Origin: Cyanidioschyzon merolae
Taxonomy: Eukaryota
Assembly (NCBI GenBank): GCA_000091205.1
Contig: AP006501.2
DNA length: 64,000 bases
Reading direction: 5' to 3' (one strand)
Part shown: piece after piece, positions 5,984-57,875 of the stretch
How the letters are laid out: every line of letters starts with the position of its first letter
How positions within the stretch are numbered: position 1 is the first letter of the stretch
Position numbers and translations under genes: made by a program
The notes under the pieces: model-generated
Database searches by the model: none
Seen by the model: only the letters and a program-made list of their open reading frames with translations
What the model was told of the DNA's origin: nothing

Positions 5984-6169
5984 TCCTGCGTTCTCTGTAA
6001 CAGCTCTAGGGCCTTCTGCAAGTGCCAGGAGAAGCCCACTGGCAGAGCGGGGTTCACGAAACCGAAAAGGCTACGCTTTCCGACCGATTCCACACGGTGG
6101 AACGTTTCAAGCTCGCAACAGTGCCCCTGGTTTCCTGTTCTCCAACAAGTACTGGGTCAAAAACCGTAC

Positions 6170-8340
6170 ACAAAAAGCACACACCGCCGGCAACAAACGC
6201 TTTTCAAAAGAAAGACGCTGCCGCCAGCGGTGTACAGTAGTCGCGACCGGCGCCCTAGAGGAAACGTCTCCAATTGACGTGCAGACGCCTTCCAGCTTTT
6301 TTCCACTGGCCACCCACTACGGCTTCCAACTTTATCTCATATAATTCCACATTCAGAGATTGTTCAATAAAGAGTTCTCTTGTCAACTCTGGGGGTCTCT
6401 TCTCCATCAACGCATATTTCCTTATATTGATGGCAGCATTAAAGTCTCGATTCATAAACTCCATCAGTTTCTTGCCGTTGGGAGTTGTACTCACTAATGC
6501 AAGTAGTCCACGAACTTTCGCGCTCCTTTCCATTTGCTCTTCCGTCAGCGTACCGTACTTTCTTATAACCTCAGGACTCCTCTGGCACTTTTCCATCTCG
6601 ACCCTCTGAAGTGTACACCCCAGTTCATGGTGTGTATAGGACGTTCGAAACTCATCTACAGGTATCGTGCCGATACGCCGTGCACACTCTTTGTACGTTC
6701 TTGTCGTTGGAGCTGGCGAAGTTCCTTGCTTGGGTCTTCCGTCGCCCTGCTCCGTACGCTACTACGAGCCTCTGACTTTCATCCTCCTTCAAGGCGCTCA
6801 GCTGATTGAAAAAGTTCGCGAATGCACGCTGCTTCCCACAATACAAATTCATTCGCAGTCGAACCCGCCGGGGCTTGGTCTACTCCTCCTACAGCGCATC
6901 CCAATGAGCAACACGAACTTCCATGAATTTCCGTAGAGCCTGAAAGTCCGCTCCTCGGCTTGTCACCTCGCTCAAAGCTTCCAGGTGCTCTTTCATTCCT
7001 GCATTTCACTTCTCAATTTTCTTCCTCGCATTCATTATACCGGATTCTCGATAGAATCTCGCTCTCGAGAACCCCAAAAGACGCATGTCTTTCTGACGTA
7101 AGTTAGCATCAGTACCATCTTCCGCACGCTAGGGTACTGCGATGGTTATGTTATTTGTGTTTCCGGGATCCGCGCCAACGACAAAGTCGTTATCTTGCAC
7201 CTCCTGCGTCGCAGGATCCGCCTCCTTCTCATCTTCATGCATCGTCGCGCCAACGACAAGGTCGTTATCTTGCACCTCCTGCGTCCCAGGATCCGCCTTC
7301 TGCTCATCTGCATCCTTCGTCACGGGCGCAGCCGAGGGAGGGACTGGGCGATCTGTCTTCAACCGCCGATAGTGTATACACAAGGCTACTCCATCGGTTT
7401 CGATCATCTCAGTGAATACCTTTTGTTTGCTGACTTTGAGACGTTTGAAATCGAAGATACTCTTCCAGTACGTCTCACGGTTTTCACCGGAGAATTTCTT
7501 CCTGCTAACATCGGACTCAGGACTGATCTCGCTCATGATGCTGCAAAGACGCCAGAGTGGATAGTCACAAAATGTGACTTGATATTGTACATTGGAACAA
7601 CGTTGAAGCGCTTCCCCATTAGGAACGCCTTCCGTCTCTCCCACTCTTCATTTTTTCCTCATTCAGCCTCATCTCTGCCGTGCGTTCGAGTTCGCGGTCC
7701 AAAAACACGAAATACCTCAAGATGAGGAGGTAGTATCTTTCCTTATCTTTTCCAACTCTGATATCTTGTCTGCTGGATTAACCAGCCCCAAGACTGCACG
7801 GTGTTCCTGTATAACCGCACGGATTAGAGAAGCTTCATTCGTGCACTCATTCGACGCCTTCTTGTCAACGAACTCGATCTCATCTTCATGATGGCGATCG
7901 TTCGTGATGCAACTGATAATTGCCCATTTTCCTGCGCGAGACAGACCCAGGTAGAGTGCAACCACGGTGCGTATCATGAAACGTTCGAAGTTCGCTGTCA
8001 AATGGTTCTTCAGATTCGCGAGGTACTTCATCGCCCCATAGCTGTAAATATCCCAGTCACCCTTGTACCGAGTACCCTCGAACCCGTCAAAGGGATGTTT
8101 TTCGTGGAGAGCATGCACTAGCACATTTTCCCTCCGCGCTTTCTCTGTACCAAGCATCAGGTGACGAATAAAGGTCTTGTCGAAGAACTCGCCGGGAATC
8201 TCGACCGTTTCCATGTGCGTCCCGTCGCGATACATCTCTCTCACCAAATGCATCAGTCTTGACAACGCGTTGACAATACTCTTGGAGTACGACGCAAAAC
8301 GTTTTTCGATAGCGTCTCGCAACTTTTGTTTATGGGGATC
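6170..8340 (-). mobile_element. Diverged, 5'-truncated copy (copy 1) of a TnpB-like, Fanzor-type element
   Basis: Roughly 90-95% similar by eye to the elements at 45450-48005 and 52281-54800. Similarity ends near 8340, just upstream of the MRDAIEKR N-terminus, and near 6170, about 90 bp past the last coding piece. Confidence 0.7.
6255..8322 (-). pseudogene. Fanzor/TnpB-like nuclease remnant (copy 1), interrupted by in-frame stops
   Basis: The pieces are 7717..8322, 7129..7644 (contains ..[18 protein letters not shown], RuvC-I-like, followed by a private TAG), 6652..6852 (FANFFNQLSALKEDESQRLVVAYGAG..., TnpB-like pre-zinc-finger block) and 6255..6596 (...MEFMNRDFNAAINIRKYAL, RuvC-III-like). 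The copy has private stops and indels relative to copies 2 and 3. Confidence 0.65.
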
Positions 8341-8995
8341 CTTGATATATCCAAAAGGGTCCGCCAGGCTCGCGCTTCATGCTCCCGCCAGTACTTACTG
8401 CTGTAGCGATATCTAAGCGACTCGTCGAGAAACGCTGGTCATTCTGGGCTCGGGGCGGGTAGCCTGCGTCAGGGGCGTCGCCCTGGTCGCAGTGGACTCC
8501 TAGCGTATCGCTTCGCGCTGCTGCAGGCAGTAGGTCTAACTGCACATCTCCCAGGCTTCCAGAATGTTGACGAATCCCGATTCCGTATTCAATGAAGCAT
8601 TCCTCGATCCGATACCCCCATGGATATGGCAAAACCGTTCTGTCTCCATTCAGCATCCGCACTAGCAGCATCGGCTCTATTGCGGATGCAGCAATGCAGG
8701 TACTCAGCGCACGATGGAACATACGAAATTACCAGTATATCCGAGAACAGACCATGAAACTTGGCGTAAGAGCGAAGCATATTGAGCACTGGCATTGATT
8801 CCAATATCCACCCCACAATCTAGAATCCATGATCCATACAAACGTCTTCTCATCGAAGAAATGGCTTCAGCAGCCACAACGCTACCGACGACGACGTCAA
8901 TTACAATAACGCAATCTGGCATACATTATCTGGAGCTAGCGTTGTACCGGGAGTCTGCGTGCCTCGGTCGCTAGTCGACGTCCTTGCCCAAGGAT

Positions 8996-29034: not shown

Positions 29035-32000
29035 TCAGGTAGAATTCGAGCTCCAGGCCGCAAGTGAATGCAGCGAGCGCGACGATGCCGTGCGGCTTGC
29101 GCCTTTCTCGGCCGGGCTGGATTGGGTGAATTGCAATAGCCGCTCCGCGACTCTCGCAGAGAGATGAGCGGATTTCCGTGCTAACGCTGCAGCCGCGCGT
29201 ACCGATGGCCCACCTGCGGCCACGGCTGTGTTGCTTGAGGTTTCCTCGGGTCGCGCTGGAGCATCAGCGCTTGGCGCCGCATCTGCATCGATCGCTGGAC
29301 GTTTCGGATGCGACTCTGTGCCGGTCGCTGCTTCCTCGGGATCAGAAGTTGACCTAGATCTACGCGCATCATCGTTTCCAGACGGTTGAGCAAGGAAGCT
29401 CGGTGCTCGTTCGCTCGCTATATTCGCTTGTGCGTCAGCATGCGCTGCAGCGAGCAGCTGCTCGACAACGGACTTAGAGGACTCGAGCTCCTCTATGCGA
29501 ATCTGTGCGAACTGGGTGATTTTCTCGGCGAGAATCGCTCGTTTGAGACGGTTGGCAATCTGTACAGCTACCTTGAAAGCAGCAGCACTCGACAGTCGTG
29601 AAGCCAAGTCAAGGACGCGGCGGTCACGTTGTTTCTCGCAAGCTTCCTCGATGAGATACAGAAGGGTCTTATCTGCTTGGCGCTGCAGTTCCCGTGCTTT
29701 TTGCGCGAGCGCCTCAAGCATTTCGTGTTCGCTATGCTGGTATTGTGTGCCATCTACTGTCGTTGTCCGGGAAAAAGCGATTGCGTCAAACAACGCAGAC
29801 CGCGTGGCGCGGATTGATGCAACCGTCCTGAGATAGGCTTGCTCGAGTTCCGAATACTGGCTATCCTGGGCAAGCGGCCAAGGGAATCGTTCGAGCGGTA
29901 CCTGGCGCAGTTGCGATCGAGGATACGGCAGAGGACTCGTCGCGTCTGCAGGCAAGATAATGCCATGAAGAACGCGATTCTTCACGCCGAGCGGATAAAA
30001 CCATTGTCGGTCGGGATCGAAAATCTCTTCACCATCTGCTTCGGCCAATGCTTGCCGAGTTCGTTCACTTGTCAGTGCCAGGTGCCAGGTCAAGTGCATG
30101 GATCCGCGTTGGAGACTGGACAACGGATGGCAACCGTGCGTCCAGTTCCAAGTGGCTGAACGGTAGCAGCCAAAGGTCCACGCTCGCAGCGTAAAAAGGT
30201 GACCAGACGCGAAATATATCCATAGCGCGCAATCCTCACTCGCATCCGACGTAGAATCGGCAGCTTCGGAGGATGTGTCTCGTTTTGTGTCCGTAAGACC
30301 GACCCAAACCAGACGCGACGTCTCAAGGTGCTGAAGCCTCTTCGCCCGAGGGCGAGCGCGCACAGCGGGGCATATCGGCAGGTTGCCGCGAACGAGACAT
30401 TCGCTCACGTATCCATTCTGGTGAATGCGCAGCAGCATATACTCCCCTGCTCCATCGGGCCCGTGACTCCGCGAAAGAATGCACAAGAGATTTTCACTTG
30501 CTACCATCGTCAGAATGCTGCCATTCAGACCAGGGTGGAAACTGTCGGTGATTAGTCCCGTGAAAGAGTAGAGGTGAACCGACTGGGCGCTGGTCGCCAC
30601 TGCAACCCAGAACTTACTCATGCAGAGGGCAATAGGGTCCTCCTGTGGCGGCAGGAATCGTATCCAGTCGCTCTGTAGAGACCACGACTCGTGAGGACGA
30701 TAATATATCAATGCAGGACGATCTGATCCGCCCTGCCCGCTCTGGGCCCCTAGCAGTATCCCATATGCATTCAAGGTGCCGTACTGGAAACCATAACGGT
30801 CTGGAAATCGAATGGATCGCTTGCTAACATCGCTAAACTCGAGCTCAATCTGTCTGGCGGGTTCCTCGCTCGTCGCAACTGCTGAGCCAGCGGGCAATGA
30901 TGTCAGGCAGCCTGTGAGGTTCCACTGTAAAATTCGCCGCTTCGCGCCCAAATCGAGCGTGGATCCGATCTGGAACGGCTGTTGGCACGTACGGTCGCAG
31001 CAGCAGGAAGATCGCCCATGAGACAACCCTGTTGCGAAGCGGCGACGCTTTCGCGAGCTCAGTGTCGTGTCGCCCACATCCGAATCGTCATTCCCATCAT
31101 CATCATCATCATCATCAGTTTCGCCTGCAGGCTCCCGTTGAGACACGCTTGACACACGTTCGGAATCATCATCGCTCGGGGTGCTTCCACCTTGAGACGG
31201 CCTAGAAGCTGCCTCTTTGAATGTCAACGAATTTGAAGTCTGCACCTGCAGCGAAGTGCCGCGCACCAATTTTGTGGTCGACCCGGGCGTCTCTGCGTTT
31301 CTCGTCGATGCCTCACCAGTGTGGGCGCCTTCTCGACTTTGGTGATGTCCGCAATGCGCATCCACGGTTCCATTATCCAACAGAGACGTAGAGAGTCTCT
31401 CGCTCCCTCTGGAGGAGATCGTTCCGCGCTCAGCTGGCAGCGTGACAACCCCAAGTTGCCCCAAAAGATCAAGATAATAGGTCACCGAGGAAACAGGGCA
31501 ACAAGCCAATGCCCGAATCTCTGCTTCAGCGACGCCTAGTTGCCGTGATGCTGCATCAGCGAGGTCATAGAGAATGATCGTGTCACCATTATCCTCCTGG
31601 AGCTTCGCGGTTACCACCAAACGTGTCGTCGAGCGAGCATCCCATGCGAGCGTCGATATGGAGATGGGCTTATCGACATGCGAACCAGCCGGGCACTGCG
31701 CTCGTGCCCAGACCTGAACATCAAAAACAGGATACCCCGCATTCTCCCAGGAGTCGCGTTCTAGAAAGTGCACCCGACCTGTGCGATCTCCAACAGCCAG
31801 AATCTGCCCGTCTGGTGAAAATCGCGCGCAACATGCATGACGTATTCTTCCGACCCCGAAGCCAATGACCCGTTGGGCATCAACAGACCAGAGACAAACG
31901 TTCGCCATTGCGGCAGGAGTTCGGGCAGTGGACGTTGCGCGTCCTTGCCCCGAGGGCACCTCATGGACGGTGGCAAAGTAGCAGCCAAGCGGATCGACCG

Positions 32001-32523
32001 CCAGATCTATGACGCTGTACTGCACGACCTCATCGTAGGCCGGGTCCTCCTCGCTCGGCCGCAGAATATCGATGCGAGGACCCTCGTCCAGATACACGAG
32101 GCGAACTGTCGCCGGCTCGCGCCCACATACAATCACGTACTCGCCTGCACCACCAAAAGCGACATAATTTGCCGGTACAGGGGTCCGACAGAGTACGGCG
32201 AGCGTCTCTCTCGTCGATACGGAAACAAGCGACACTTGTGATGCGTCATCTGCAACCACAAGAAAGCTGCAGCAGGGCGAAAGCGCCAGCGACCATATAG
32301 CGCTGACTGCACCGGGACCATTCGGTTCAGCTTCCCATACCCAGTCACACTCTTTCGTGACCGAGAGTCGATTCCCTGCGTCCGTCTTCACCGAACGTCC
32401 GAGCACTCTTCCGTCTGATCCGCCTGTGAATACAAACGTTACTGGAGAAGCACCAGCGCCGGGACTCTGAGCACCAACAGCCAGCGAACAAGTGCCAGGT
32501 GGGTGACAAACTATCGTTTCCAT
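29035..32523 (-). CDS. WD40 beta-propeller protein, possibly a Ctf4/AND-1/WDHD1-like replisome factor (family assignment tentative)
   Basis: A 1162-aa single ORF with ATG at 32523. The N-terminal region has WD-repeat-like blocks (SPDGQILAVGDRTGRVHFLE...). The middle has propeller-like repeats (SVHLYSFTGLITDSFHPGLNGSILTMVAS...). The C-terminus is a helical bundle (LDLASRLSSAAAFKVAVQIANRLKRAILAEKI). A poly-Asp run is encoded by (GAT)n at about 31080-31115. Confidence 0.45.
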   Translation of the reverse strand: METIVCHPPGTCSLAVGAQSPGAGASPVTFVFTGGSDGRVLGRSVKTDAGNRLSVTKECDWVWEAEPNGPGAVSAIWSLALSPCCSFLVVADDASQVSLVSVSTRETLAVLCRTPVPANYVAFGGAGEYVIVCGREPATVRLVYLDEGPRIDILRPSEEDPAYDEVVQYSVIDLAVDPLGCYFATVHEVPSGQGRATSTARTPAAMANVCLWSVDAQRVIGFGVGRIRHACCARFSPDGQILAVGDRTGRVHFLERDSWENAGYPVFDVQVWARAQCPAGSHVDKPISISTLAWDARSTTRLVVTAKLQEDNGDTIILYDLADAASRQLGVAEAEIRALACCPVSSVTYYLDLLGQLGVVTLPAERGTISSRGSERLSTSLLDNGTVDAHCGHHQSREGAHTGEASTRNAETPGSTTKLVRGTSLQVQTSNSLTFKEAASRPSQGGSTPSDDDSERVSSVSQREPAGETDDDDDDDGNDDSDVGDTTLSSRKRRRFATGLSHGRSSCCCDRTCQQPFQIGSTLDLGAKRRILQWNLTGCLTSLPAGSAVATSEEPARQIELEFSDVSKRSIRFPDRYGFQYGTLNAYGILLGAQSGQGGSDRPALIYYRPHESWSLQSDWIRFLPPQEDPIALCMSKFWVAVATSAQSVHLYSFTGLITDSFHPGLNGSILTMVASENLLCILSRSHGPDGAGEYMLLRIHQNGYVSECLVRGNLPICPAVRARPRAKRLQHLETSRLVWVGLTDTKRDTSSEAADSTSDASEDCALWIYFASGHLFTLRAWTFGCYRSATWNWTHGCHPLSSLQRGSMHLTWHLALTSERTRQALAEADGEEIFDPDRQWFYPLGVKNRVLHGIILPADATSPLPYPRSQLRQVPLERFPWPLAQDSQYSELEQAYLRTVASIRATRSALFDAIAFSRTTTVDGTQYQHSEHEMLEALAQKARELQRQADKTLLYLIEEACEKQRDRRVLDLASRLSSAAAFKVAVQIANRLKRAILAEKITQFAQIRIEELESSKSVVEQLLAAAHADAQANIASERAPSFLAQPSGNDDARRSRSTSDPEEAATGTESHPKRPAIDADAAPSADAPARPEETSSNTAVAAGGPSVRAAAALARKSAHLSARVAERLLQFTQSSPAEKGASRTASSRSLHSLAAWSSNST

Positions 32524-44042: not shown

Positions 44043-45326
44043 CTATGAAGCCGTTGGGCTCGACACGGGATCTTCGCTGGCGATGTCCTCGGCCTCGTCC
44101 TCGGAGTCTATTTCATCCGTCGCTGGCCAGATGCTCGGAGGCATATGCTTCATCTGGACAGAGGGAGCACCTTCTAGTTGGCGCAATTGTTCGATAACTT
44201 TGCTCTTCACCTTCTCTAGATAATCTCTCGAATTCTGGTTCTCCAGTTCACGCATTGGTTGAATATGGAGAGAATATTCTGGAGCGAAGTATTCCCAGTA
44301 ATCATTGTATGGAATCTGGGCGTCTACCGATATGCCTAGAAGCACCGAGGTCTCAAAGAGCCAGCAGCGGGCAACGTTTCGGATGTTGTAGCCACCACCG
44401 CCGAGGACCAGCATCGGGATTCGGAACGAACGAACAAAAGCCACCGCATTCGCATGTCCCTGTACCGTCAAGTTAAAGCACCCGAGTCGATCATGGGCCA
44501 GAGAATCCGCGCCACACTGCATCACGATTGCACCCGGTTGATATACTTCGATGACCTTGGTTATTATCGGCTCGAAAATGCGACTGAAACCTGCATCATC
44601 CATGCCGTCTTTCAGGGGCACGTTCACCGCGTATCCTTCACCGCGCCCGTAGCCGCGGTCCCATACATCTCCGGTTCCCGGGAAAAAGTTGTCTCCGTAT
44701 TTGTGGAAGGACACCGTGAGCACTCGATCTGTGGTGTAGAAGGCTTCTTCGACACCATCACCATGATGCACATCAATATCGATGTAGAGCACACGCGGGT
44801 AGAGACGCAGCAGTTCGAGAATTGCCAGTACGATATCGTTCACATAGCAGAAACCGCTCGCTTCACTTTTCTTGGCATGATGAAGACCACCTGCCCAGTT
44901 AATCGCAATATCACTGGTACCCGACATGAGTTTTCTGGCACCGTCGATACTACCGCCGGCAGATACGGCGCAAAAGTCCCAAAGACCGTCAAACAGCGGA
45001 CAGTCGCCGTGTTGTCGTCCGACGTTAAACCGCTGTAGCTGGTCCAAAACGTCGTCGGTTATGGTGTCCGGGGTTGTGTTTCGCAGGAACTCTATATAGT
45101 CGTGGGCGTGGAACTTTTCGCACTCCTCAGGGCTCGCTTTACGAGGCTTGTAGACGTCCATATGGCGATAGAGACCGTACGCGAGACATAGGTTGTGCGT
45201 GATGGCCATTCGGTGCGGTTTCATGGGATGATGCTGTCCATAATAGTAGCCCCCAACATCAAAGTCCATAAAATAGGCCACGCGCAAACGGTCGGTGGAA
45301 CCATACAGAGCCTGGCTCGACAGCAT
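44043..45326 (-). CDS. Class I histone deacetylase (Rpd3/HDAC1-2 type)
   Basis: [67 protein letters not shown]..., [63 protein letters not shown] and [15 protein letters not shown] are canonical class I HDAC blocks, including the catalytic HH and D.H.GDG motifs. The ATG is at 45326. The acidic Ser-rich tail is typical. Confidence 0.9.
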
Positions 45327-45449
45327 GAGTCCAGTGAAGATCGAGACGTTCGCTAGAGCACCGAAAACAAGCGAGGAACCTGAAGCGTCCGGGTGGCTTT
45401 GTATGCACGGATGCTCGAAGCCTAGCTAGCGCACAACTTGGCTGAGGAT

Positions 45450-48005
45450 GCGCACCCCTGGAAACAAACGTCTTTCAAAAGAAAAACGTTGCTGCCAGTG
45501 GTACAGTAGTGGCGGCAACCGCACCCTAGCCAAGAAGTCTCCAACTGATGTGCAGACGCCTTCCAGCTTTTTTCGACTGGCCACCCACTACTGCTTCCAA
45601 CTTTTTCCCATATAATTCCACATTCAGAGATGGTTCCATAAAGTTTTCTCTTGTCAGCTCTGGGGGTCTATTCTCCATCAACGCATATTTCCTTATATTG
45701 CTGGCAGCATTAAAGTCTCGGTTCATAAACTCCATACGTTTCGTGCCGTTGGGAGTTGTACTCACTAATGCAAGTAGTCCACGAACTTTCGCGCTCCTTT
45801 CCATTTGCTCTTCCGTCAGCGTACCGTACTTTCTTATAACCTCAGGACTCCGCTGGCACTTTTCCATCTCGACCCTCTGAAGTGTACACCCTAGCTCATG
45901 GTGTGTATAGGACGTTCGAAACTCATCTACAGGTATCGTGACGATACTCCGTGCACACTCTTTGTACGTTCTTGTCGTTGGAGCTGGCGTAGTTCCTTGC
46001 TTGGGTCTTCCGTCACCCTGCTCCGTACGCTACTACGAGTCTCTGACTTTCATCCTCCTTCAAGGCGCTCAGCAGATTGAAAAAGTTCGCGAATGCACGC
46101 TGCTTCCCACAATACAAATTCATTCGCAGTCGAACCCACCGGGGCTTGGTCTACTCTTTCCACAGCGCATACCAGTGAGCAATACGAAGTTCCATGAATT
46201 TCCGAAGAGCCTGAATGTCCGCTCGTCGGCTCGTCACCTCGCTCATAGCTTCCAGATGCTCTTTCATTCTTTCATTCCATGCAGCAATTTTCTTCCTCGC
46301 ATTCATTATACCGGATTCTCGATAGTATCTCGCTCTCGAGAACCTCAAAAGACGCATGTATTTCTGACGTAAGTTACCATCAGTACCATCTTCCGCACGC
46401 TGGGGTACTGCGATGGTTATGTTATTTGTGTTTCCGGGATCCGCGCTGACGACAAAGTCGTTATCTTGCACCTCCTGCGTCGCAGGATCCGCCTCCTTCT
46501 CATCTTCATGCATCGTCGCGCCTGCATCCTTCGTCTCGGGCGCAGCCGAGGGAGGGACTGGACGATCTGTCTTCAACCGCCGATAGTGTATACACAAGGC
46601 TACTCCATCGGTTTCGATCATCTCAGTGAATACCTTTTGTTTGCTGACTTTGAGACGTTTGAAATCGAAGATATTCTTCCAGTATGTCTGCCGGTTTTCA
46701 CCGGAGAATTCCTTCCTGCTAACATCGAAATCAGGACTGATCTCGCTCGTGATGCTGCAAAGACGCCAGAGTCGATAGTCACAAAATGTGACTTGATATT
46801 GTACATTGGAACCACGTTGAAGCGCTTCCCCATTAGGAACGCCTTCCGTCTCTCCCACTCTTCATTTTTTCCTCATTCAGCCTCATCTCTGCCGTGCGTT
46901 CGAGTTCGCGGTCCAAAAACACGAAATACCTCAAGATGAGGAGGTAGTATCTTTCCTTATCTTTTCCAACTCTGATATCTTGTCTGCTGGATTAACCAGC
47001 CCCAGTACCGCACGGTGCTCTTGTATAACCGCACGGATTACAGAAGCTTCATTCGTGCACTAATTCGACGCCTTCTTGTCAACGAACTCGATCTCATCTT
47101 CATGATGGCGATCGTTCGTGATGCAATTGATAATCGCCCATTTTCCTTCGCGAGACAGACCCGGGTGGAGTGCAACCACGGCGCGTATCATGAAACGTTC
47201 GAAGTTCGCTGTCAAATGGTTCTTCAGATTCGTGAGGTACTTCATGGCCCCGTAGCTGTAAATATCCCAGTCACCCTTGTACCGAGTACCCTCGAAGCTG
47301 TAGAAGGAATGTTTTTCGTGGAGGGCATGCACTAGCACATTTTCCCTCCGCGCTTTCTCTGTACCAAGCATCAGGTGAGGAATAAAGGTCTTGTCGAAGA
47401 ACTCGCCCGGAATCTCGACCTTTTCCATGTGCGTCCCGTCGCGATACATCTCTCTCACCAAATGCATCAGTCCTGACGACGCCTTGACAATATTCTTCGA
47501 GTACGACGCAACACGTTTTTCGATAGCTTCTCGCAACTTTTCCCTGTACGGATCCTTGATCTGTCCAAGAAGAAAGGTTTTCACCACCATCTCGTCGCAC
47601 AGTTGTCTTTCTTGCCGCTTTCGACGTAGGGCCTCCCCCGTTTTTGCGTTTTCTTCTTATCCTGCTCTTCTGGAATCGGCACTGTTTTTTGTTTTTTTTC
47701 TGGCACCCGGCGACACTGGGCCTCCAGGATCGTAGACTTGCTTTTTCATAGCTTTCCTTTTTTAGTTTTTTTTGAGAAAGAACGCTCTTTGAACTCTTCT
47801 GTTATATACTGCGAAAAAAACACTTGATTAGACTTGTTCGAAGTTTGAAACACAATTGAAATGAAAAACTGTACTTGGCTATGAAGTTAACGAAAATACA
47901 ACTTTTACATTAGATCTACATGCTAGAGATCAGGATCACGTTCCCCTTCAACAACGGCATGTGCGTAGCGTCTCATGCCTGCCTGATCTCCGAGGTGCAC
48001 TCACC
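45450..48005 (-). mobile_element. TnpB-like (Fanzor-type) element copy 2. It forms the left arm of a 2.5-kb inverted repeat.
   Basis: It is the reverse complement of 52281-54800 at near identity. Coding remnants are 47060..47590 (the N-terminal piece, ending KKASN then TAG), 46151..46858 (the middle piece with [15 protein letters not shown]) and 45526..45867 (C-terminal MEFMNRDFNAASNIRKYAL...). A Lys/Arg-rich putative NLS segment lies further 5'. Confidence 0.75.
45526..47590 (-). pseudogene. Fanzor/TnpB-like nuclease remnant (copy 2). It has in-frame stops and lacks one 20-aa internal repeat present in copies 1 and 3.
   Basis: The middle piece reads ...[51 protein letters not shown]..., which has a single [11 protein letters not shown] unit compared with two in copy 3. 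Confidence 0.65.
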
Positions 48006-48559
48006 GAGCGCGATGCAAACTAGTCACAAATTATTTATTAAAGAACAACTATCTTAAAAGCCCCATACAGCACGCGCGCCTATGGGGTCTAGTTTTTCCG
48101 AAGAAGCTCTGAAAGTGGGTTAAACCGGGGTGCTTGGGCGACGACGAAGGAAGCCCACGCCAGGGACCATGACCGCAACGAACGGAGGGGCGGAGGCAGT
48201 GGCAGCAGAAAATATTGACGAGAGTTCTGAGTAGTTATCCGCTGCTCCCGAAACAACGCTGCAGGTTCCGGCGCAAATCCTGGATCCATCCTCGAACTCG
48301 GGCTACGTTTTACCTCCCACCTTGAGCACCTACCTCAACTTTGGAAACACTCTCGGCGGATACTTCGGAAGGCGGCTATCGATATGCTCGTGGTCGAAGC
48401 TGGAATAAGCGACTTACCCGCCTATGTGTTTGGGGAACGGATACGTAACCGCTGAACGGGTGCTTTGCAGACTGTTCCCAATGGTTGAGGGTAGCTTCAC
48501 GCGTCCGGCAAGATAAAGTTCGCATTCGAATCGACCTTGACTAATGTACTTCTGATTCT

Positions 48560-51500
48560 ACGCTAGCGCTGCGGCAGACACTCAATGAACGACTGGAATG
48601 CAGGAGGCGCTGGTGGCATGTGCTCTCACACACCTTGTGGAGGGTGCATCTAAATGGACGACGCATCTCTCGAGTACCGCAGCGTTACTCCTATACCCTT
48701 ATGCGCTACGACTCGATAGGTTTCGCATCATGGAATATTTGCGGTGTGGCCTCGATACTAGACGACGAGATATCGAATTACCAGTACAGTAATGAAGAAC
48801 TGATACAAGTCGAGGACTGTACAATAGGAAAAGAGACCCAACCAGACACGGAGAAGGAGACACAGAAACCTCATGATCCACCTAGATGCAAAATAACCAG
48901 AGAAAGTAGCTCAGGAAAGAGCCCGAAGAAGAAAAAGACCAGCAAGAAATAAACAGAAGAATAGAAAAAAGAACTCCCAAATGAGCCCATCACAAGGTAT
49001 CCCCCGAGAGGGCACCCCAGCTGGAACTCAAGAAAGCCGTCGCCAAACCCAGGCACCTACTCACAGCGCTGAAGATCCGAAAAGCCGTGCATACAAATTT
49101 TTTGACCAATTGACACGCGAGTTTGTAGATGGGAATCAGAAGATTGCCAGAGAGCTGGGACTGCTTGCACCAGAACGCAACAGTTGCAAACCTCGGTACC
49201 TGAAACGACGTACCAAAACTCGGATTGATGAATGCTACCGAGTCTATAAGATCGTCAACCGCACCGCCATACACGCCAACGCCGGAGACAAAGAAGCGAA
49301 GGCAGCGCTACCGGCGCTACAGGCGCAACATGAAGAAGCTATCAAAAGAAAGAAGAAACTTTCCAGAGAAGACAAACGAGAGGATCGAAACCGCAGAATC
49401 GCCTCCCTGGCGAAATCTATGCTGGAGAGCACCAACGAAGATGAGATCTGGCGCTACATTCGATCGAGACTCGACCCACCAAAAAAGTGCTTGGGGCTCA
49501 CACCAACTCTGTATAAGGAAGAGCTGAGGACGGAGCGTGCCTCAGTGAATGAGGCCTGGACAGACCACTGGACAGAGCTGCATGAAGAAGCAACTGGACA
49601 CTGCTAAGACCCAATCTATTGGCACCAATATGCTGCAGAACTACCGCGCCTCGACCCGGTACCGGAATGGAACGACCCAATCTTCTGGCCTGAATCTGTC
49701 CGGACTCTGCTATGCTCAAGCAACCGCAAAACACCTGGCTTTGACGGTATCCCTACGGAGTGGATGAAACTGGTGATCCCAAAAGACGGGACAACAGGGA
49801 CACCATCGATACCAGATGAACCTGACAGAATCTTAGGCAAGCGCCTTCTGGAGCTCATCCAACGCATGTTCGAAGAAGCGTACATCCCAGATGTATGGAG
49901 GACTGCCGAGGTCGTATCGATCCTCAAAAAGGACTCCGAACCCCACAGACATGAATATCTACCGGACTATGCGCCTCATCCCGTCAATCATGAAGCTACT
50001 TTGCGCCAACCTCACGAACCGGACTCAGAGGGGCCTTGAGGAACGCAACTTCCTCGCCCCAGAGCAGGCTGGATTCCGGAGCCGCGAGGAGTGCATGAGC
50101 CATGACCTGACCTTCATTGAAGTGGTGCAACGTCGCTCCATTAGCTGCCAACAACCAACTTACGTATGCTTCATCGACTTTCAAAAGGCCTTTGACACGG
50201 TCCCGCACGAGGCTCCATTTCTGAAGATGGAACGTGCCAGAGTCTCCGGAAAGTGCTTAGCGTTCTTCCGTGCGCTCTATGCAGACTCGTGGATGTGCAC
50301 CCGACTGGGCGACTGCTCAAGAACCCCTTCGATAAGAATCCGCCGTGGACTGCGACAGGGCGACCGCGCATCCCCGCGCCTTTTCAACATCTTCATCAAC
50401 GATCTGCTGAACAACTGCAGACAATACGGGCTTCAGGTGTCGTGGATAGACTGTGGAGAACCCGGTGAGGAGCGCCTACATAGAAACCGCCTCGCAGGCC
50501 TTCTACTTGCGGACGATGTCGTGCTGTTGGCACCCGCCCCGGAAACGCTTGCGGCTAGCATGCAACAAGTCAGCGCCTGGGCCGATCGCTGGGTTATGAA
50601 CATAGGAGCATCGAAGTGCGGCGCCATGGTCATCCTTGGAGACTCGCAGCGCATTCGCAATCGCTCGTGGCGGTTGCAGAATCAGGAAATTCCGATCGTG
50701 GAAAAATATCGCTACCTGGGGGTCTGTCTCACGCCGACGCTCGACGAAAAGGCACAAGTCGACGAGATGATCGCCAAGATGCATAGACGTACAGAGATCG
50801 CACGTCCATTCTTATCCGACCCCTCTATCTGCATAGCAATCCGTACGAGGGCACTAAGGATGTGTATCATCCAGCCTTCGACCTGGGGTGCTGAATGGTG
50901 CGGCATGAAGCACACAAATGCCTCGCGTCTGCATACAGCCGCCAACAGGGCAATGCGACTCGTTGGTGTTGGATGCTCAGTGCAGCGCAGAGCGACCAAC
51001 CCGCTGGCACTCGGACTTGAACTCCAAATAGCCTCGATAGAAGCGATAGCAGCAGGCTGCCGGGCATGTATACGGGCCAAAGGGCCCACTATGCGCACCT
51101 CCTTGAGTCGGATTTTCATGCAGACCCCAACGCACCGCTAGAACACTTGGATGAAATCAGCGCAGATTTGGCTGAAGCGCCTCTTACGCGAAAACACGCT
51201 ACCCAATCGTTCCCCAGGAATGTAGAAGACTTCAGACGCCTCAAGCGAACGGTCCAAACAACAATATGGGAAGGTAGACACGGTACCAGTCGCGCTAGTA
51301 ACGCCGGCTTGACTCTATATCGGAACTACAACCTAGCATACACATGCAAGTACTGGTGGGAGGCGCTGGAATTCCCGGGACTTGCTCGCGGTACCCTGTG
51401 GCTTGCCAAAATCCGTGTTAGTGGCATCTGGCTACCAGCACCGGCTCTAAGCCGTACGGGAACACTGGAACCGCACTGGGAGTCACACTGTCCCTGCTAT

Positions 51501-52276
51501 CGAGACGAAATCCCCGAGACGCTGACATATTTAAGCTTACAGTGCCCGCGCTCGAAGCAGGAGCGCAGCGAGCTCCTTGAAGGACAGCAGGAGCTCGGCA
51601 TCACCGTGATAGTCGAAGGCCGGACACTCACTCTGAGTGTAGCACTGGCAACTGATGGTCCGCTAACGGAGCCTCAGCGCTCATGAGTGGCGAAGAAACT
51701 CACATGCTACCTTCTAGGCAGCAGGTCCAACGAATCGGATGAGCACACGGGTTTAGTGCTCTTTGTGCCTACCCACTGTGGTGGGTGTCAAGCACAAACC
51801 CGCATTGCCAACCGACAACACATTCAATGCATGATCACGAAGGAAAGAGGCGGCTCGCACGATATATCCTAACAGCCAAGTTTCTCCAGCGTGTCGTGCA
51901 GCGAAGACAAGCCTGCATCCGCAGACTGTCCGAGCACAAACTGACGACGAGACCCGATTCTACTTCGGTTGAACCACGCCTCGAGCCGACGCGCTCTGGG
52001 GTATAGAAAAGCTGCTCTAGCTCGATGAACTATCTGCTCCAGCATTTAAGGTCCAAAGGCGGATACGGAAAGGCAGGTACTAGGCACACACGATAGGACG
52101 TATGAAACGACCAGAGTATCCGAGGTGAAGTATAGGTACTGTAGCTTGGAGGCAGGCTGTTTGATGGATACCTAACCGCGCACTGAAAAAAATAACATAA
52201 AAAAGTAAGAAAAGAAAAAGCGCACAATTGGAAAATGCTGGCACAAGTAAACGTCTTGTCCATGAAAAAAAGAATC
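48560..52276 (+). mobile_element. Degenerate non-LTR (LINE) retrotransposon with APE-like, RT and CCHC remnants and a 3' A-rich end
   Basis: 48620..48952 carries IGFASWNICGVAS, an AP-endonuclease-like start. 49764..50039 and 49891..51141 carry RT blocks (VWRTAEVVSILKK..., YRTMRLIPSIMKLL, CFIDFQKAFDTVPHE, GLRQGDRASPRLFNIFIND, LLADDVVLLA). 51066..51686 has a CCHC-like knuckle (CPCYRDEIPETLTYLSLQCP). Frameshifts separate the pieces. The 3' end (...catgaaaaaaag) abuts arm B at 52281. The 5' boundary is approximate. Confidence 0.75.
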
Positions 52277-52280
52277 GCGC

Positions 52281-54800
52281 TCGGTGAGTGCACCTCGGAG
52301 ATCAGGCAGGCATGAGACAAGACGCGCGTGCCGTTTTTGAAGGGAAACGCGATCCTGATCAGTAGCGTGTTGTTCTGCTGTAAAAGTCGGATTCCCGTTC
52401 AGATCATAGCAAAGTATAGTTTTCATTTCAATTGTGTTTCAAACTTCGAACAAGTCTAATCAAGTGTTTTTTTCGCAGTATATAACAGAAGAGTTCAAAG
52501 AGCGTTCTTTCTCAAAAAAACTAAAAAAGGAAAGCTATGAAAAAGCAAGTCTACGATCCTGGAGGCCCAGTGTCGCCGACTGCCAGAAAAAAAACAAAAA
52601 ACAGTGCCGATTCCAGAAGAGCAGGATAAGAAGAAAACGCAAAAACGGGGGAGGCCCTACGTCGAAAGCGGCAAGAAAGACAACTGTGCGACGAGATGGT
52701 GGTGAAAACCTTTCTTCTTGGACAGATCAAGGATCCGTACAGGGAAAAGTTGCGAGAAGCTATCGAAAAACGTGTTGCGTCGTACTCGAAGAATATTGTC
52801 AAGGCGTCGTCAGGACTGATGCATTTGGTGAGAGAGATGTATCGCGACGGGACGCACATGGAAAAGGTCGAGATTCCGGGCGAGTTCTTCGACAAGACCT
52901 TTATTCCTCACCTGATGCTTGGTACAGAGAAAGCGCGGAGGGAAAATGTGCTAGTGCATGCCCTCCACGAAAAACATTCCTTCTACAGCTTCGAGGGTAC
53001 TCGGTACAAGGGTGACTGGGATATTTACAGCTATGGGGCGATGAAGTACCTCGCGAACCTGAAGAACCATTTGACAGCGAACTTCGAACGTTTCATGATA
53101 CGCACCGTGGTTGCACTCTACCCGGGTCTGTCTCGCGAAGGAAAATGGGCGATTATCAATTGCATCACGAACGATCGCCATCATGAAGATGAGATCGAGT
53201 TCGTTGACAAGAAGGCGTCGAATTAGTGCACGAATGAAGCTTCTGTAATCCGTGCGGTTATACAAGAGCACCGTGCGGTACTGGGGCTGGTTAATCCAGC
53301 AGACAAGATATCAGAGTTGGAAAAGATAAGGAAAGATACTACCTCCTCATCTTGAGGTATTTCGTGTTTTTGGACCGCGAACTCGAACGCACGGCAGAGA
53401 TGAGGCTGAATGAGGAAAAAATGAAGAGTGGGAGAGACGGAAGGCGTTCCTAATGGGGAAGCGCTTCAACGTGGTTCCAATGTACAATATCAAGTCACAT
53501 TTTGTGACTATCGACTCTGGCGTCTTTGCAGCATCACGAGCGAGATCAGTCCTGATTTCGATGTTAGCAGGAAGGAATTCTCCGGTGAAAACCGGCAGAC
53601 ATACTGGAAGAATATCTTCGATTTCAAACGTCTCAAAGTCAGCAAACAAAAGGTATTCACTGAGATGATCGAAACCGATGGAGTAGCCTTGTGTATACAC
53701 TATCGGCGGTTGAAGACAGATCGTCCAGTCCCTCCCTCGGCTGCGCCCGAGACGAAGGATGCAGATGAGCAGAAGGCGGATCCTGAGACGCAGGAGGTGC
53801 AAGATAACGACCTTGTCGTTGGCGCGACGATGCATGAAGATGAGAAGGAGGCGGATCCTGCGACGCAGGAGGTGCAAGATAACGACTTTGTCGTCAGCGC
53901 GGATCCCGGAAACACAAATAACATAACCATCGCAGTACCCCAGCGTGCGGAAGATGGTACTGATGGTAACTTACGTCAGAAATACATGCGTCTTTTGAGG
54001 TTCTCGAGAGCGAGATACTATCGAGAATCCGGTATAATGAATGCGAGGAAGAAAATTGCTGCATGGAATGAAAGAATGAAAGAGCATCTGGAAGCTATGA
54101 GCGAGGTGACGAGCCGACGAGCGGACATTCAGGCTCTTCGGAAATTCATGGAACTTCGTATTGCTCACTGGTATGCGCTGTGGAAAGAGTAGACCAAGCC
54201 CCGGTGGGTTCGACTGCGAATGAATTTGTATTGTGGGAAGCAGCGTGCATTCGCGAACTTTTTCAATCTGCTGAGCGCCTTGAAGGAGGATGAAAGTCAG
54301 AGACTCGTAGTAGCGTACGGAGCAGGGTGACGGAAGACCCAAGCAAGGAACTACGCCAGCTCCAACGACAAGAACGTACAAAGAGTGTGCACGGAGTATC
54401 GTCACGATACCTGTAGATGAGTTTCGAACGTCCTATACACACCATGAGCTAGGGTGTACACTTCAGAGGGTCGAGATGGAAAAGTGCCAGCGGAGTCCTG
54501 AGGTTATAAGAAAGTACGGTACGCTGACGGAAGAGCAAATGGAAAGGAGCGCGAAAGTTCGTGGACTACTTGCATTAGTGAGTACAACTCCCAACGGCAC
54601 GAAACGTATGGAGTTTATGAACCGAGATTTTAATGCCCCTATCAATATAAGGAAATGAGCGGTGCTGGAGGAAAGACCCCCAGAGTAGACAATAGAAAAC
54701 CTTTTTGGACAACCTCTCAAAGTCGAACTATATGAGATAAAGTTGGAACCAGTATTAGGTGGCCGATCCAAAAAGGCTGGAAGGCGTCTGCACATCAGCT
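52281..54800 (+). mobile_element. TnpB-like (Fanzor-type) element copy 3. It forms the right arm of the inverted repeat.
   Basis: Coding remnants: 52434..52690 is a K/R-rich NLS-like stretch in another frame. 52696..53226 is the N-terminal piece. 53428..54192 is the middle piece (...[27 protein letters not shown]...RIAHWYALWKE). A continuation lies in the same frame after a TAG (TKPRWVRLRMNLYCGKQRAFANFFNLLSALKEDESQRLVVAYGAG). 54476..54658 reads MEKCQRSPEVIRKYGTLTEEQMERSAKVRGLLALVSTTPNGTKRMEFMNRDFNAPINIRK. A conserved 3' noncoding tail of about 140 bp follows. Confidence 0.75.
52560..54658 (+). pseudogene. Fanzor/TnpB-like RuvC nuclease remnant (copy 3)
   Basis: The domain order matches TnpB/Fanzor. 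There is an N-terminal region, a RuvC-I-like hydrophobic-D-P-G motif, then a F..F..L..K.E....VV block, then a Cys-containing region, then the RuvC-III-like NRDFNA.INI. In-frame stops occur after KKASN, after TTSSS (four stops within 25 codons), after ALWKE and after YGAG. Confidence 0.65.
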
Positions 54801-54953
54801 GGAGGCGTTTCGTCTAGGGCGCGTTCGCCGGCACGACTGTACACGGCCGCCGGCTGTGCGTCACGTGGAGCCGCGAGCGGCGGGCTTCTACCAAGTGCCG
54901 CTTGTACCAAACGCACTTGCACCTCGTGTGGACACAGACGCATACCTGAGTGC

Positions 54954-57875
54954 ATGGCCGATTCTGGAGATGAAACGGAGTGGGAACTTGCTGCCGAGAA
55001 GTTTGTAGCGACTGTTGCACCGAAAGAAACTACTCCGTCTCGGGGGAGGCCCTCGAGTCGGGCGACGCGCTCGCCGTTGCGCGAGGCTCCGCCCGAGGCC
55101 GCGCCCAACGCGGGAGCCGGCACTGCAGGCCGACCTGGACGCAGTGCGGGCAGCTCGGGGCCCTCGGAACCCACCGCAGACACCACCACAGGCACCACAC
55201 GCGTCGCTCGAGGTGCCCAACCGAAACCTGCAGGCAAGCCGAGCGGCGTGGGTGGAAACAGAGGGAGCGACGTGGCTGCGGCCCCGTCTCAGGTTATTCA
55301 GGTTTTGCGTTTCAGCAGTGATGCGTCGCTCACAGCAACCGTTCGGGGGAGTCAAGCAAACCAGCAGGCGCTCTGGGATCGGGCGCGATCGGCGTTCGAG
55401 TCGGCGCTGCGTCGGAACGCAACACGACTGGAGCTCGATGCGCTGGCAGCGGCCCTGCAGACTGTAGGCGTCGACATCTCTCTTGGTCGAAACGCAGGCA
55501 CACGCGGCGGCGGACCTGCAACGAACGGGCCCACTGACGGCAGCGGTGGACGGCGTTCGGGAGCCGCTGCGGGCGGCACGGCGTCGCGAACTCCGCAGCC
55601 AGCGCTCACGCGAGGCCGCAACGCCTGGACCCCCTCGTTTCTGACCAAAACTGCGGATACGTCCGCTACAGAGGGGGAGAATCTGGTCAATTCCTCTCGA
55701 CGAAAAGCAAAAGCTATACTGAACAAACTCGTACCGGAGAAGTTCGTCACGCTAGCGCAGCAGATTCTTGATATGCCGCTCCATCATTACGACGTACTGG
55801 AAGCGGTGATTTCAGAAATCTTTGATAAAGCGCTTGCGGAGCCGTATTTTTGTGGAGTCTACGCAGATCTGTGTGAAGTTTTGAACCGCGCGCTTCCGAG
55901 CATCGCGATCGAGAGTGCTTCGGGGACCAAACAAACCAACTTTCGCAAAATGCTTCTCGCGCGCTGCCAAGCTGAGTTTGTGCAGCGCGCCCTAGCCTCG
56001 GAAGAGCGCGCAACAGACGAGCAGGAACTTGAGGTTTGCGCCCACAACCGACGCCGCACGCTAGGAAATACAATTTTCGTGGGTGAGCTCTTCAAGCGGC
56101 ATCTGCTGAGCGAAAAAATCATTCATGAGTGTGTACAGATGCTGCTGAAAGAGGGCGAGAACGAAGATAGCATCGAAACGCTTGCCAAGTTGCTCTCCGT
56201 CGCCGGCAGCAGCATGGATCGCCCTGAGGCTCGGTCCTACATGGACGCCTACTTTACCAAGATCGAAGAAATGGCAAACAACGCACAAATTCGAGCTCGT
56301 TATCGGTTTATGCTCAAGGATTGCGTTGAGCTGCGTAAGCAGAAATGGAAGCCGCGACGAGCCCAAGAACGGCCAGCGACACTGGATGAGATTCACGGGA
56401 AAAAGTCCGGCCGTGCCGCTCGGCAAGCGAGTCAGTCGCTGGCACGCAAAGCTGCTCAGCTGCGCTTCACGGGAGCTGATGCAGAGGCGCCCAAGCCGGA
56501 GGCGGAATCCACAGTTCCAGCAGGGCAAGTGTCCGCGTCTGCCACTGTCCAGGGTCGTGTTGAGAACGCCCGTAACCAGAACGTTGCCGGCGAGACGGTC
56601 ACGGACGCTGCACACGCCAAGTCGGAGTCGGGACCGGTCCCCGATCGGACTGTCGTTTGGACCGAAAACCCTGAACTATTGCGGACGTATATTCGTGGTA
56701 TCATTGAAGACTACGTGGTGAATCCGTATCCGGCAGAGGTACAGGTGGCGCTCACCGAGTCCGGACTTGCCGCACAGCCTGACCTGCTGGCTTTGGCTGG
56801 CGTTCAGGAACTCTTCTCCATGGTCTGCAGTGCGCGCGGGCATGAACGGCAGCCGCTTGTTCGATCCTTTGGAGATGCCTTCCAGCATGTACTTTCTAGG
56901 GAGAAGCTGCTCGAGGCTCTTGTATCGATTACGTCCAATTTGCTTACCTTCGAAGACGAGCTTGATATGCCTACAGCAGGCAAAGTTCTCGGCGAGTTTC
57001 TCGGGACGTTATGCACTAGCCACTGCGCTACGTTCTTACACGACGCTGCTGATATTCATACAGTACTGGCAGCGGTTCCGCCTAATAGACAGGCATCCGT
57101 GCTGCGTTCCTTCTTGGAAACGCTCTTCCGACAGTATCCTTCAGATATGCGAGAGCGCTTCGGCGCTTCCCTGCGAGCACTACGTCCGCTTTTCGTGTCG
57201 CTCCCGCAAACGGAACAGCGCGAACTCGAAGAGCTACTTGCAAAATATGAACTGCTTGAGCTCGTTCCCGAATGGCAGCTCCGACGCCAGCTCCAATACT
57301 ATCTGGAACCTGGAAAGGAGCGTATCGCAGATGCAGCAGACTGGTTGCGAAGCTTCCTGCCCAGAGTGCGGGAAACGCTACGCTCCGAGGACGCAACAGC
57401 ATCCACTGCAAAGTCCAGTCTGAACGAATGGTACGCCTTTTGTCGATTCACTGCGGACCATATCCTATCAACTTATGTCATGGAAGCGCAATCGAGTAGT
57501 ACGATGGATATCATGCGGCGACTACGCCTGATGGTGCCGCTTCTTCGTGAAACAGCCGGAAACATGCCCGCGACCGATGAAACCGACGACGACGACGACG
57601 ACAGTGACCCCGCGGAAGACAAGGAGTGGCGTCAAGCCCAAGTGGCTTTTGCAGTGCAAGCAGGTTGTTATCGTTTGGACTTTCCCACTGATCTCATAAG
57701 CGGCATGTTCCAGGTGCTGTACGACGCGGATGTGATCTCAGAGGAGGCATTCGATCGCTGGCGGGAAGATGTACACGATACGACACCAGGAAAGCTCAAG
57801 GCGCTATTTCATGTGAATGCTTTTCTGAATTGGCTCAAGGAGACTGATGAAGAACCGGAGAAATCCGATGTGTAA
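54954..57875 (+). CDS. eIF4G-like translation initiation factor (MIF4G, MA3-like middle and C-terminal W2 domains)
   Basis: The MIF4G block reads RRKAKAILNKLVPEKFVTLAQQILDM...LEAVISEIFDKALAEPYFCGVYADLCEVL...NTIFVGELFKRHLLSEKIIHECVQMLL. The C-terminal W2-like block reads ISEEAFDRWREDVHDTTPGKLKALFHVNAFLNWLKE, followed by an acidic tail. The track ORF begins at 54759 inside the Fanzor 3' tail. The first ATG, MADSGDETEWELAAEKF at 54954, is the more plausible start. Confidence 0.75.
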   Translation: MADSGDETEWELAAEKFVATVAPKETTPSRGRPSSRATRSPLREAPPEAAPNAGAGTAGRPGRSAGSSGPSEPTADTTTGTTRVARGAQPKPAGKPSGVGGNRGSDVAAAPSQVIQVLRFSSDASLTATVRGSQANQQALWDRARSAFESALRRNATRLELDALAAALQTVGVDISLGRNAGTRGGGPATNGPTDGSGGRRSGAAAGGTASRTPQPALTRGRNAWTPSFLTKTADTSATEGENLVNSSRRKAKAILNKLVPEKFVTLAQQILDMPLHHYDVLEAVISEIFDKALAEPYFCGVYADLCEVLNRALPSIAIESASGTKQTNFRKMLLARCQAEFVQRALASEERATDEQELEVCAHNRRRTLGNTIFVGELFKRHLLSEKIIHECVQMLLKEGENEDSIETLAKLLSVAGSSMDRPEARSYMDAYFTKIEEMANNAQIRARYRFMLKDCVELRKQKWKPRRAQERPATLDEIHGKKSGRAARQASQSLARKAAQLRFTGADAEAPKPEAESTVPAGQVSASATVQGRVENARNQNVAGETVTDAAHAKSESGPVPDRTVVWTENPELLRTYIRGIIEDYVVNPYPAEVQVALTESGLAAQPDLLALAGVQELFSMVCSARGHERQPLVRSFGDAFQHVLSREKLLEALVSITSNLLTFEDELDMPTAGKVLGEFLGTLCTSHCATFLHDAADIHTVLAAVPPNRQASVLRSFLETLFRQYPSDMRERFGASLRALRPLFVSLPQTEQRELEELLAKYELLELVPEWQLRRQLQYYLEPGKERIADAADWLRSFLPRVRETLRSEDATASTAKSSLNEWYAFCRFTADHILSTYVMEAQSSSTMDIMRRLRLMVPLLRETAGNMPATDETDDDDDDSDPAEDKEWRQAQVAFAVQAGCYRLDFPTDLISGMFQVLYDADVISEEAFDRWREDVHDTTPGKLKALFHVNAFLNWLKETDEEPEKSDV

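Follow-up and report, generated by a model that had tools for sequence, protein, structure and literature searches.

Three copies of a repeat of ~2.6 kb lie within a 64,000-nucleotide stretch of contig AP006501.2 (assembly GCA_000091205.1), the window that we analyzed. These copies, which were found by self-BLAST, we call c1, c2 and c3 (Table 1). Judged by their sequence, all three are decayed pseudogene copies of CMe-1A, a Fanzor1 element, in Cyanidioschyzon merolae or a close relative. CMe-1A is an element of ~2.5-3.2 kb without terminal inverted repeats that encodes CMe-1, a Fanzor1 (TnpB-like RuvC) protein. The first-pass annotation of the window had proposed that positions 54600-54800, near the 3' end of c3, are a conserved noncoding tail and a candidate scaffold for a guide RNA of the omega RNA (ωRNA) type. 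Our analysis makes a different arrangement likely, in which the flagged interval is a decayed CMe-1A coding tail and the candidate ωRNA scaffold is a module of the element family that lies downstream of it.

CMe-1A was published in 2013 from Cyanidioschyzon merolae with ~150 genomic copies, mostly decayed, that are each ~80% identical to a consensus of 3169 bp. Terminal inverted repeats are absent from this consensus, target-site duplications were not determinable, and its first 635 bp (5') are a separate element, TE-N2_CMe (Bao & Jurka, Mob DNA 4:12, PMC3627910). The CMe-1 protein is 734 aa long with the C-terminus ...NRDFNAAINIRRCAVLEKRPPELTRENFVGQPLKVELYEKKLEAVVGGRSKKTGRRLHVSWRRFV, of which the last residues are WRRFV (PMC3627910, Additional file 3). 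This C-terminus is identical to the consensus that we derived from 66 metagenomic and window copies. A protein stitched together from the window was 76% identical to CMe-1 over 707 aligned positions, from residue 53 to the last (E = 0). BLAST of the window copies against the published DNA consensus gave 84-89% identity in the main segments and 75% for the TE-N2 module of c1. c2 corresponds to consensus positions 648-3169 plus ~16 nt past the published end, and c1 to positions 1-499 and 1084-3169 with positions 500-1083 internally deleted. The window copies and the published element are thus of the same family, and the TE-N2 5' module is common to the consensus and c1. At the 5' side the other two copies differ from the published element: c3 borders on an inverted TE-N2, and c2 has another repeat there.

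The three RuvC motifs (I, DPGNTN; II, VDEFRTS; III, NRDFNAAINI) occur in this order in the window and in the family consensus. On its own, the stitched window protein matched nothing in Pfam or PDB, and a profile from homologues was needed. A database search with the stitched protein returned 62 homologues. A profile of 15 diverse homologues matched the Fanzor1 protein of Guillardia theta (PDB 9cer) across the RuvC motifs with a weak score (E = 0.0012), and three distant family members matched PF07282. None of the window copies has an intact open reading frame (ORF); all three carry several stops and frameshifts, some of them common to more than one copy. One metagenome scan returned 334 relatives, and 80 loci of these were kept (L-numbered loci). 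At least 330 uninterrupted C-terminal codons are retained in only ~10 of the 66 family copies.

Table 1. Coordinates of CMe-1A copies, candidate scaffold modules and neighboring genes in the window.
Feature	Position	Strand	Remarks
Copy 1 (c1)	8354-6220 in self-BLAST; element 6182..8855	-	93.6% identical to c3
Copy 2 (c2)	48014-45501 in self-BLAST; element 45453..48014	-	94.7% identical to c3
Copy 3 (c3)	52274-54854	+	self-BLAST reference; consensus positions 648-3147 at 84.5-88.6% identity
RuvC-III motif NRDFNAPINI of c3	54620..54649	+	same motif aligns with Guillardia theta Fanzor1 (9cer)
Decayed C-terminal tail of c3	54650..54817	+	55 ancestral codons and stop; covers most of the flagged interval
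Complete candidate ωRNA scaffold of c1	6182..6287	-	covariance model 51.4 bits; stop TAG 6257-6255
Copy-specific flank 3' of c1 right end, putative guide position	6162..6181	-	right-end comparison
Complete candidate ωRNA scaffold of c2	45453..45558	-	covariance model 57.3 bits; stop TAG 45528-45526
Copy-specific flank 3' of c2 right end, putative guide position	45433..45452	-	unrelated to c1 flank
Candidate ωRNA scaffold remnant of c3	54785..54854	+	covariance model 54.2 bits over 54785-54886
BMS1/TSR1-type gene, intron-free	22148-25786		
Ctf4/Mcl1-type gene, intron-free	29035-32523		
Histone deacetylase (HDAC) gene, intron-free	44043-45326		c2 ends 126 nt upstream of start
eIF4G-like gene (MIF4G + W2), intron-free	54957-57875		c3 ends ~100 nt upstream of ATG

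The interval 54600-54800 is the C-terminal coding tail of the Fanzor gene, disabled in c3 by two in-frame stops. To call it noncoding was wrong. In c1 and c2 the frame stays open past NRDFNAAINI for 55 codons, RKYALME.RPPELTRE.F...GRRLH.SWRRF(V/L/G), up to a TAG, and the same residues end the published CMe-1 protein, which has 55 residues beyond NRDFNAAINI and terminates in WRRFV. The premature stops of c3 are TGA at 54656-54658 and TAG at 54686-54688. Its ancestral stop, TAG, is at 54815-54817 and the flagged interval is therefore wholly within the ancestral ORF. Full-length homologues at 30-40% identity keep the segment that follows NAAINI as protein, for example NRDFNAAINIRKCLILPERPVALCRSNFRGQRLVHRVGRVLKR, with RP..L.R..F.GQ.L as the conserved residues. 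The first-pass annotation had itself named the remnant of a longer ORF as the alternative to its own proposal, and this alternative was borne out.

We compared column entropy at the three codon positions in 66 copies. It was 0.55, 0.50 and 0.68 at positions 1, 2 and 3 of the last 55 codons (four-fold sites 0.72) and 0.37, 0.29 and 0.62 in the 257 codons upstream (four-fold sites 0.74). There was no extra constraint on synonymous sites in the tail (four-fold sites 0.72 versus 0.74, p = 0.88). The tail has weaker protein constraint than the body of the gene, no added constraint at the nucleotide level, and a codon-position pattern of the coding type. Conserved secondary structure, which the guide-RNA proposal had called for, was not found in the interval, where RNAalifold predicted no helix. 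One candidate helix, CTGGAG/CTCCAG, was rejected; all changes in it are uncompensated and it encodes the conserved LE..PPE. The folding energy of c3 54650-54798 gave z = -1.25. The tail can be aligned among copies because all descend from one coding sequence, and not through constraint at the RNA level.

The description of the tail as conserved was misleading as well. Between c3 and c2, identity reaches 100% in most of 52474-54573 and is 96-98% in a few 100-bp windows, one 57-bp indel aside, whereas in the three 100-bp windows from 54574 it is 89%, 79% and 62%. The flagged tail is thus the least similar part of the c2/c3 repeat. The identity of the core looks like a gene conversion tract, apparently recent, between inverted copies ~4.3 kb apart, and such conversion explains the stops and frameshifts common to both. 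The near-identical spans are 52474-54573 (+) and 47810-45770 (-), and both ends of the repeat are only 62-89% identical. The codon right after RPPE, TTG in the consensus, is TAG at 54686-54688 and also in L007, L010, L033, L038 and L039, which look independent; it is among the most variable codons of the tail (second-position entropy 1.88 bits).

Other rearrangements mark the body of the copies. Immediately ahead of the RuvC-I DPG motif, 75 bp (25 aa) are duplicated in tandem (53748-53826 and 53823-53901 in c3; 7171-7324 in c1). The published consensus has one 25-aa unit and protein P0001 has four, and c2, when compared with c3 and c1, has lost 57 bp here. The deletion in c1 (8354-8359; consensus 500-1083) takes away the beginning of the ORF. 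It has counterparts with the same deletion point at other loci, in the metagenomic L052, L053 and L072, so a protein-dead derivative still spread. We considered whether c1 is a 5'-truncated copy like that of a long interspersed nuclear element (LINE). This was ruled out by the internal deletion together with the retained TE-N2 5' module.

Downstream of the coding tail, the family shares a module of ~105 nt, or up to ~120 nt if an invariant CGTCTGCAC is counted. This module begins ~15-30 nt before the stop codon, continues for ~85 nt after it and ends exactly at the right end of the element. Its first helix (H1), AGACG-NNN-CGUCU, spans the last codons and the stop, and is followed by a second (H2), GGCG(GG)...(CU)CGCC. 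A conserved single-stranded ACUACUGUA separates H2 from a terminal hairpin (H3), which runs from CACC to GGUG and is G·U-rich with 17-22 bp. BLAST with the c2 tail gave 85 matches, nearly all of which break off at one common point, and the ~85 nt of conserved sequence after the stop are seen in 75 unique tails and their alignment. Column entropy is 0.1-1.8 bits within the module and ~1.9 bits after GGTG, and the sequence past H3 is unrelated between insertions. The published consensus ends within the 3' arm of H3 (...GAAAGGCG) and family copies run ~16-20 nt further to GGTG, so that the true right end lies ~16-20 nt past the published one. Rfam had nothing at the gathering threshold over the whole window, and at E ≤ 10 on the c2 tail it returned only a chance small nucleolar RNA (snoRNA) match. 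RNAalifold on a 73-sequence MAFFT alignment recovered only H2, because length variants misalign the arms of the hairpins.

With a covariance model built on the seed, the module was detected in c1, c2 and c3 as well as in those fetched loci whose 3' element end is preserved. In c1, H3 occupies 6232-6182 with ~22 bp (CACCGC...GCGGTG), and folding of 6273-6176 gave z = -3.14 for the sense strand and -0.96 for the antisense strand. In c2, H3 is at 45501-45453 and ends in GGTG; folding of 45544-45448 gave z = -2.92 (sense) and -1.59 (antisense). The remnant in c3 comprises CGTCTGCAC at 54785-54793, H1 at 54803-54815, H2 at 54818-54832 with one pair broken, the linker ACGACTGTA at 54833-54841 and, at 54842-54854, the first part of the 5' arm of H3. 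The opposite (3') arm is gone, homology to the family ends at ~54853, and 54799-54896 folds no better than shuffled sequence (z = +0.76). The flagged interval holds only ~16 nt of the module, most of which lies past the ancestral stop. In c1 and c2 the module is kept and the ORFs are dead, in c3 the hairpin is lost, and no single locus is a working system.

Much of what the first-pass annotation had reported about the right ends holds. The three copies can be aligned past NRDFNA.INI, as it stated, up to ~54853, and the strings that it quoted are present in our right-end alignments. c1 and c2 do resemble each other beyond the point where c3 diverges, for 76 nt past the stop (to 6182 and 45453) before they differ, c3 having about the first 38 nt. 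Its equivalent regions on the minus strand, ~6170-6330 and 45450-45600, were correctly located. The copy-specific sequence that it anticipated just 3' of the element end is seen in the unrelated flanks of c1 and c2 and in the column entropy after GGTG. Its proposal of a guide-RNA-like scaffold at the 3' end stands in so far as there is a structured family element on the sense strand that reaches the right end, and fails in its placement at 54600-54800. The guide-RNA idea is partly supported; it holds only if moved downstream and applies to c1, c2 and the family, not to c3.

The module is also found without an ORF. Such copies, with CGTCTGCAC, H1, H2, the linker and a hairpin-like end, are at L023:342-450, L051:412-520 and L039:273-370, lie ~815 nt upstream of a full Fanzor unit and resemble the 'ghost loci' of S. 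punctatus. The ORF-less module starts ~40 nt before the position of the stop, after unrelated sequence, which hints at where the RNA unit begins. In some other loci the terminal hairpin is replaced. L081:3920-4000 matches 51800-51870 of the window, upstream of c3, and the right ends of L064 and L067 have TE-N2-like sequence in place of the hairpin. The right end of CMe-1A may be a favored site for other insertions.

Several measurements bear on whether H3 is a selected structure. One dominant hairpin forms in 54 of 58 unique copies, with a median of 17 bp and up to 24 bp, and H3 is at the same time the part of the module most variable in primary sequence (entropy 0.4-1.8 bits). The hairpins contain 152 G·U pairs and 8 A·C mismatches (19:1), that is, the pairing is specific to the sense strand. 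The sense strand folds better than the antisense strand in 60 of 73 copies (mean energies -21.2 versus -16.3 kcal/mol). The mean z against dinucleotide shuffles is -2.04 and that of flanking DNA -0.07. There are two versions of the inner stem, CGUUCGA-CUU-UCGAACG and CGUUUUUC-UUUU-GAAAGACG, that differ at 8 of 26 positions and both fold. In neutral simulations with the same number of substitutions, the observed stability was reached in 2.8% of runs in one direction and 0.005% in the other. The covariance model R1, built from the short-hairpin class, finds all copies and aligns the long-hairpin class badly; the alignment A5 was therefore excluded from the pair counts. The alignment-free results point to strand-specific structural selection on the terminal hairpin.

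Because its position, strand, size and layout of scaffold followed by variable flank match those of Fanzor1 ωRNAs, we take the module as a candidate ωRNA scaffold. Read in the sense direction, it extends from the 3' end of the ORF to the right end of the transposon, and its conserved sequence is followed directly by copy-specific sequence. In the mechanism that we propose, the module (c1, c2 and, as a remnant, c3) would be the scaffold of the family. Sense transcription would continue past the right end and so add the adjoining 15-20 nt of flank as the guide. With this guide loaded, the Fanzor1 protein would cut DNA that matches it beside a target-adjacent motif (TAM).

Characterized ωRNAs of Fanzor1 (Fz1) proteins offer a direct comparison. 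In that of SpuFz1, a scaffold of 75 nt, located between stop codon and right end, is combined with a guide of 14-15 nt (Saito et al. 2023, PMC10432273), that of GtFz1 overlaps 17 codons of the ORF (PMC10432273), and Fz1 ωRNAs are in general 75-150 nt long and have stem-loops that precede the guide (Xu et al. 2024, PMC11423790). The CMe-1A module falls within this size range. Like the ωRNAs of SpuFz1, GtFz1 and PpFz1 it shares its strand with a Fanzor1 ORF, is located where this ORF ends, and has stem-loops and then copy-specific sequence. It has no sequence similarity to them and no Rfam match, and its hairpin adjacent to the guide position is long, at 17-22 bp. The 7-bp SL1 of Fz1 ωRNAs had no confident counterpart in the module, and CMe-1A differs from the SpuFz1, GtFz1 and PpFz1 elements in ending without inverted repeats. 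CMe-1A also resembles IS200/IS605 elements. Both have a TnpB-family gene whose 3' end, together with the transposon right end, encodes a guide RNA (a candidate one in CMe-1A), and both lack terminal inverted repeats and target-site duplications and have palindromic structures at both ends. CMe-1A differs from them in its eukaryotic host and in an ORF overlap much shorter than in TnpB. We found no description of an ωRNA for CMe-1A in the searchable literature, and the 2013 CMe-1A paper predates ωRNA.

Some of our results weigh against a guide-RNA scaffold. H1 and H2 hardly vary, and their lack of covariation is no evidence for or against their pairing. Covariation of H3 in the 16-sequence seed was not significant, as 54 to 279 of 500 shuffles reached the observed values. 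Most of the evidence for the hairpin comes from alignment-free tests, and sequences that are related do not count as independent samples. Where the module begins on its 5' side depends on one ORF-less occurrence that is perhaps a single ancestral deletion remnant, and most CMe-1A family copies are pseudogenes. In addition, a strand-specific hairpin could act as single-stranded DNA of the top strand.

This last point leads to the rival that survives best, in which the terminal hairpin is a DNA signal, a single-stranded structure at the right end read by a transposase acting in trans in the manner of IS200/IS605 or of the Helitron 3' hairpin. CMe-1A has neither terminal inverted repeats nor a detectable target-site duplication (PMC3627910), its 3' end is precise where its 5' modules vary, and there is a short palindrome at its left boundary. 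A G·T mismatch is the least destabilizing in DNA, so strand bias alone is compatible with a DNA role, and in IS200/IS605 the same right-end sequence fills both the DNA and the RNA role. Against this, we saw no gene for TnpA (Y1 HUH) or another transposase next to any copy within the window, a 3' end of the Helitron CTRR type is absent from CMe-1A, and 17% wobble pairs in a stem of 17-22 bp are typical of RNA helices. An ωRNA also sits at this place in every Fanzor or TnpB examined so far. A DNA signal in place of an ωRNA is to our minds improbable, and the two roles are not mutually exclusive.

It is less probable still that 54600-54800 is itself a noncoding guide-RNA scaffold conserved for its RNA function. 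Bacterial TnpB ωRNAs overlap the 3' end of the ORF by ~100 nt or more. That of GtFz1 does so by 17 codons (PMC10432273), and an overlap that extends into the interval is therefore conceivable. The segment from -200 to -145 has a mean z of -1.22. However, this stretch belongs to the coding sequence of the published protein and of distant homologues, its four-fold sites show no excess conservation, and neither RNAalifold nor the z of the c3 tail points to a structure there. The ORF-less module, moreover, begins only ~40 nt ahead of the stop. Just as doubtful is a role of the hairpin as an element of the 3' untranslated region (UTR) of the Fanzor mRNA, in 3'-end formation or stability, with no guide function. 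As such an element could, the hairpin follows the stop on the sense strand and reaches up to the border of CMe-1A; yet a 3'-UTR role leaves unexplained both the exact end of the structure at the transposon terminus and the persistence of an ORF-less module copy, and the hairpin is followed by neither a U-tract nor a poly(A) signal pattern. We give least credence to the similarity past the stop being undecayed shared ancestry without function, which would suit the many dead copies and the lack of covariation in H1 and H2 but not the folding of H3, the most variable part of the module, in 54 of 58 unique copies, its 19:1 bias of G·U over A·C or its two diverged versions that both fold. Both the 3'-UTR element and neutral decay fit less well than the DNA signal.

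If the module is an ωRNA scaffold, Cyanidiales could in addition possess, in CMe-1, an RNA-guided system that still functions. Its ωRNA, the ~105-nt module, would then have an unusually long G·U-rich hairpin next to the guide and at the very end of the element, and the unit from consensus position 648 to GGTG would move in an IS200/IS605-like way without an encoded transposase and persist by ωRNA-guided homing, with ORF-less copies serving as 'ghost' guides. We consider this larger scenario unlikely.

What had been read as a conserved noncoding tail is corrected here to the pseudogenized coding tail of an element already in the literature. The CMe-1 Fanzor1 family gains a concrete candidate guide RNA; the candidate ωRNA is new and the element itself already published, with its right end now placed ~16-20 nt past the published consensus. 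In view of what is known about Fanzors, a scaffold of this kind was to be expected. C. merolae is a model alga that is amenable to genetics and has almost no introns. If it does have an RNA-guided nuclease of its own with a defined ωRNA, this could quickly be checked against existing RNA-seq.

The left boundary of the Fanzor unit, at consensus position ~648, is formed by a short palindrome, GCGCUC-GGU-GAGCGC or GCGCG-GUCGAUA-CGCGC. It lies at 52278-52292 in c3 and at 48010-47996 in c2, and falls within the first 20 nt past the boundary in ~35 loci. Its variants GCGCA/UGCGC and GUGCG/CGCAC look compensatory. There is no strand bias in this palindrome, 17 copies favoring each strand. The same left boundary adjoins at least 7 different upstream sequences, and no conserved left-flank motif (TAM) was consistent across the ~7 independent left junctions. 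Empty (uninserted) alleles were sought to define the insertion site and the TAM. We found none for c2, as all orthologous contigs of the HDAC locus carry it, and none for c3 via its neighboring genes.

Fragments of TE-N2_CMe are present at 51970-52270 and 16129-16313. The one to the left of c3 is inverted and meets the c3 left boundary through an A-rich run. This A-rich sequence was considered as the tail of the neighboring reverse-transcriptase element and ruled out as such, being part of the inverted TE-N2 fragment. The 5' end shared by TE-N2 and CMe-1A always follows a short T-rich tract (TTTTTC, TTTCTTT), for example at L017:678, L080:1392, L076:1392, L067:800, ~8855 of the window (c1) and others. 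Read in reverse, TE-N2 ends in an A-rich tail, and it may be a retroposon resembling a short interspersed nuclear element (SINE) that lies antisense in the published CMe-1A consensus.

Between c2 and c3, at 49891-51686 (+), there is an ORF for a non-long-terminal-repeat reverse transcriptase (Pfam RVT_1, E = 2.7e-22) with further ORFs following it. This element appears LINE-like, in an otherwise compact genome. The window has a GC content of 55% and long intron-free eukaryotic genes (Table 1), in line with a host that is probably a Cyanidioschyzon-like red alga. The same HDAC protein is encoded in JGI and ENA metagenome assemblies, and one of these samples also contains Fanzor loci.

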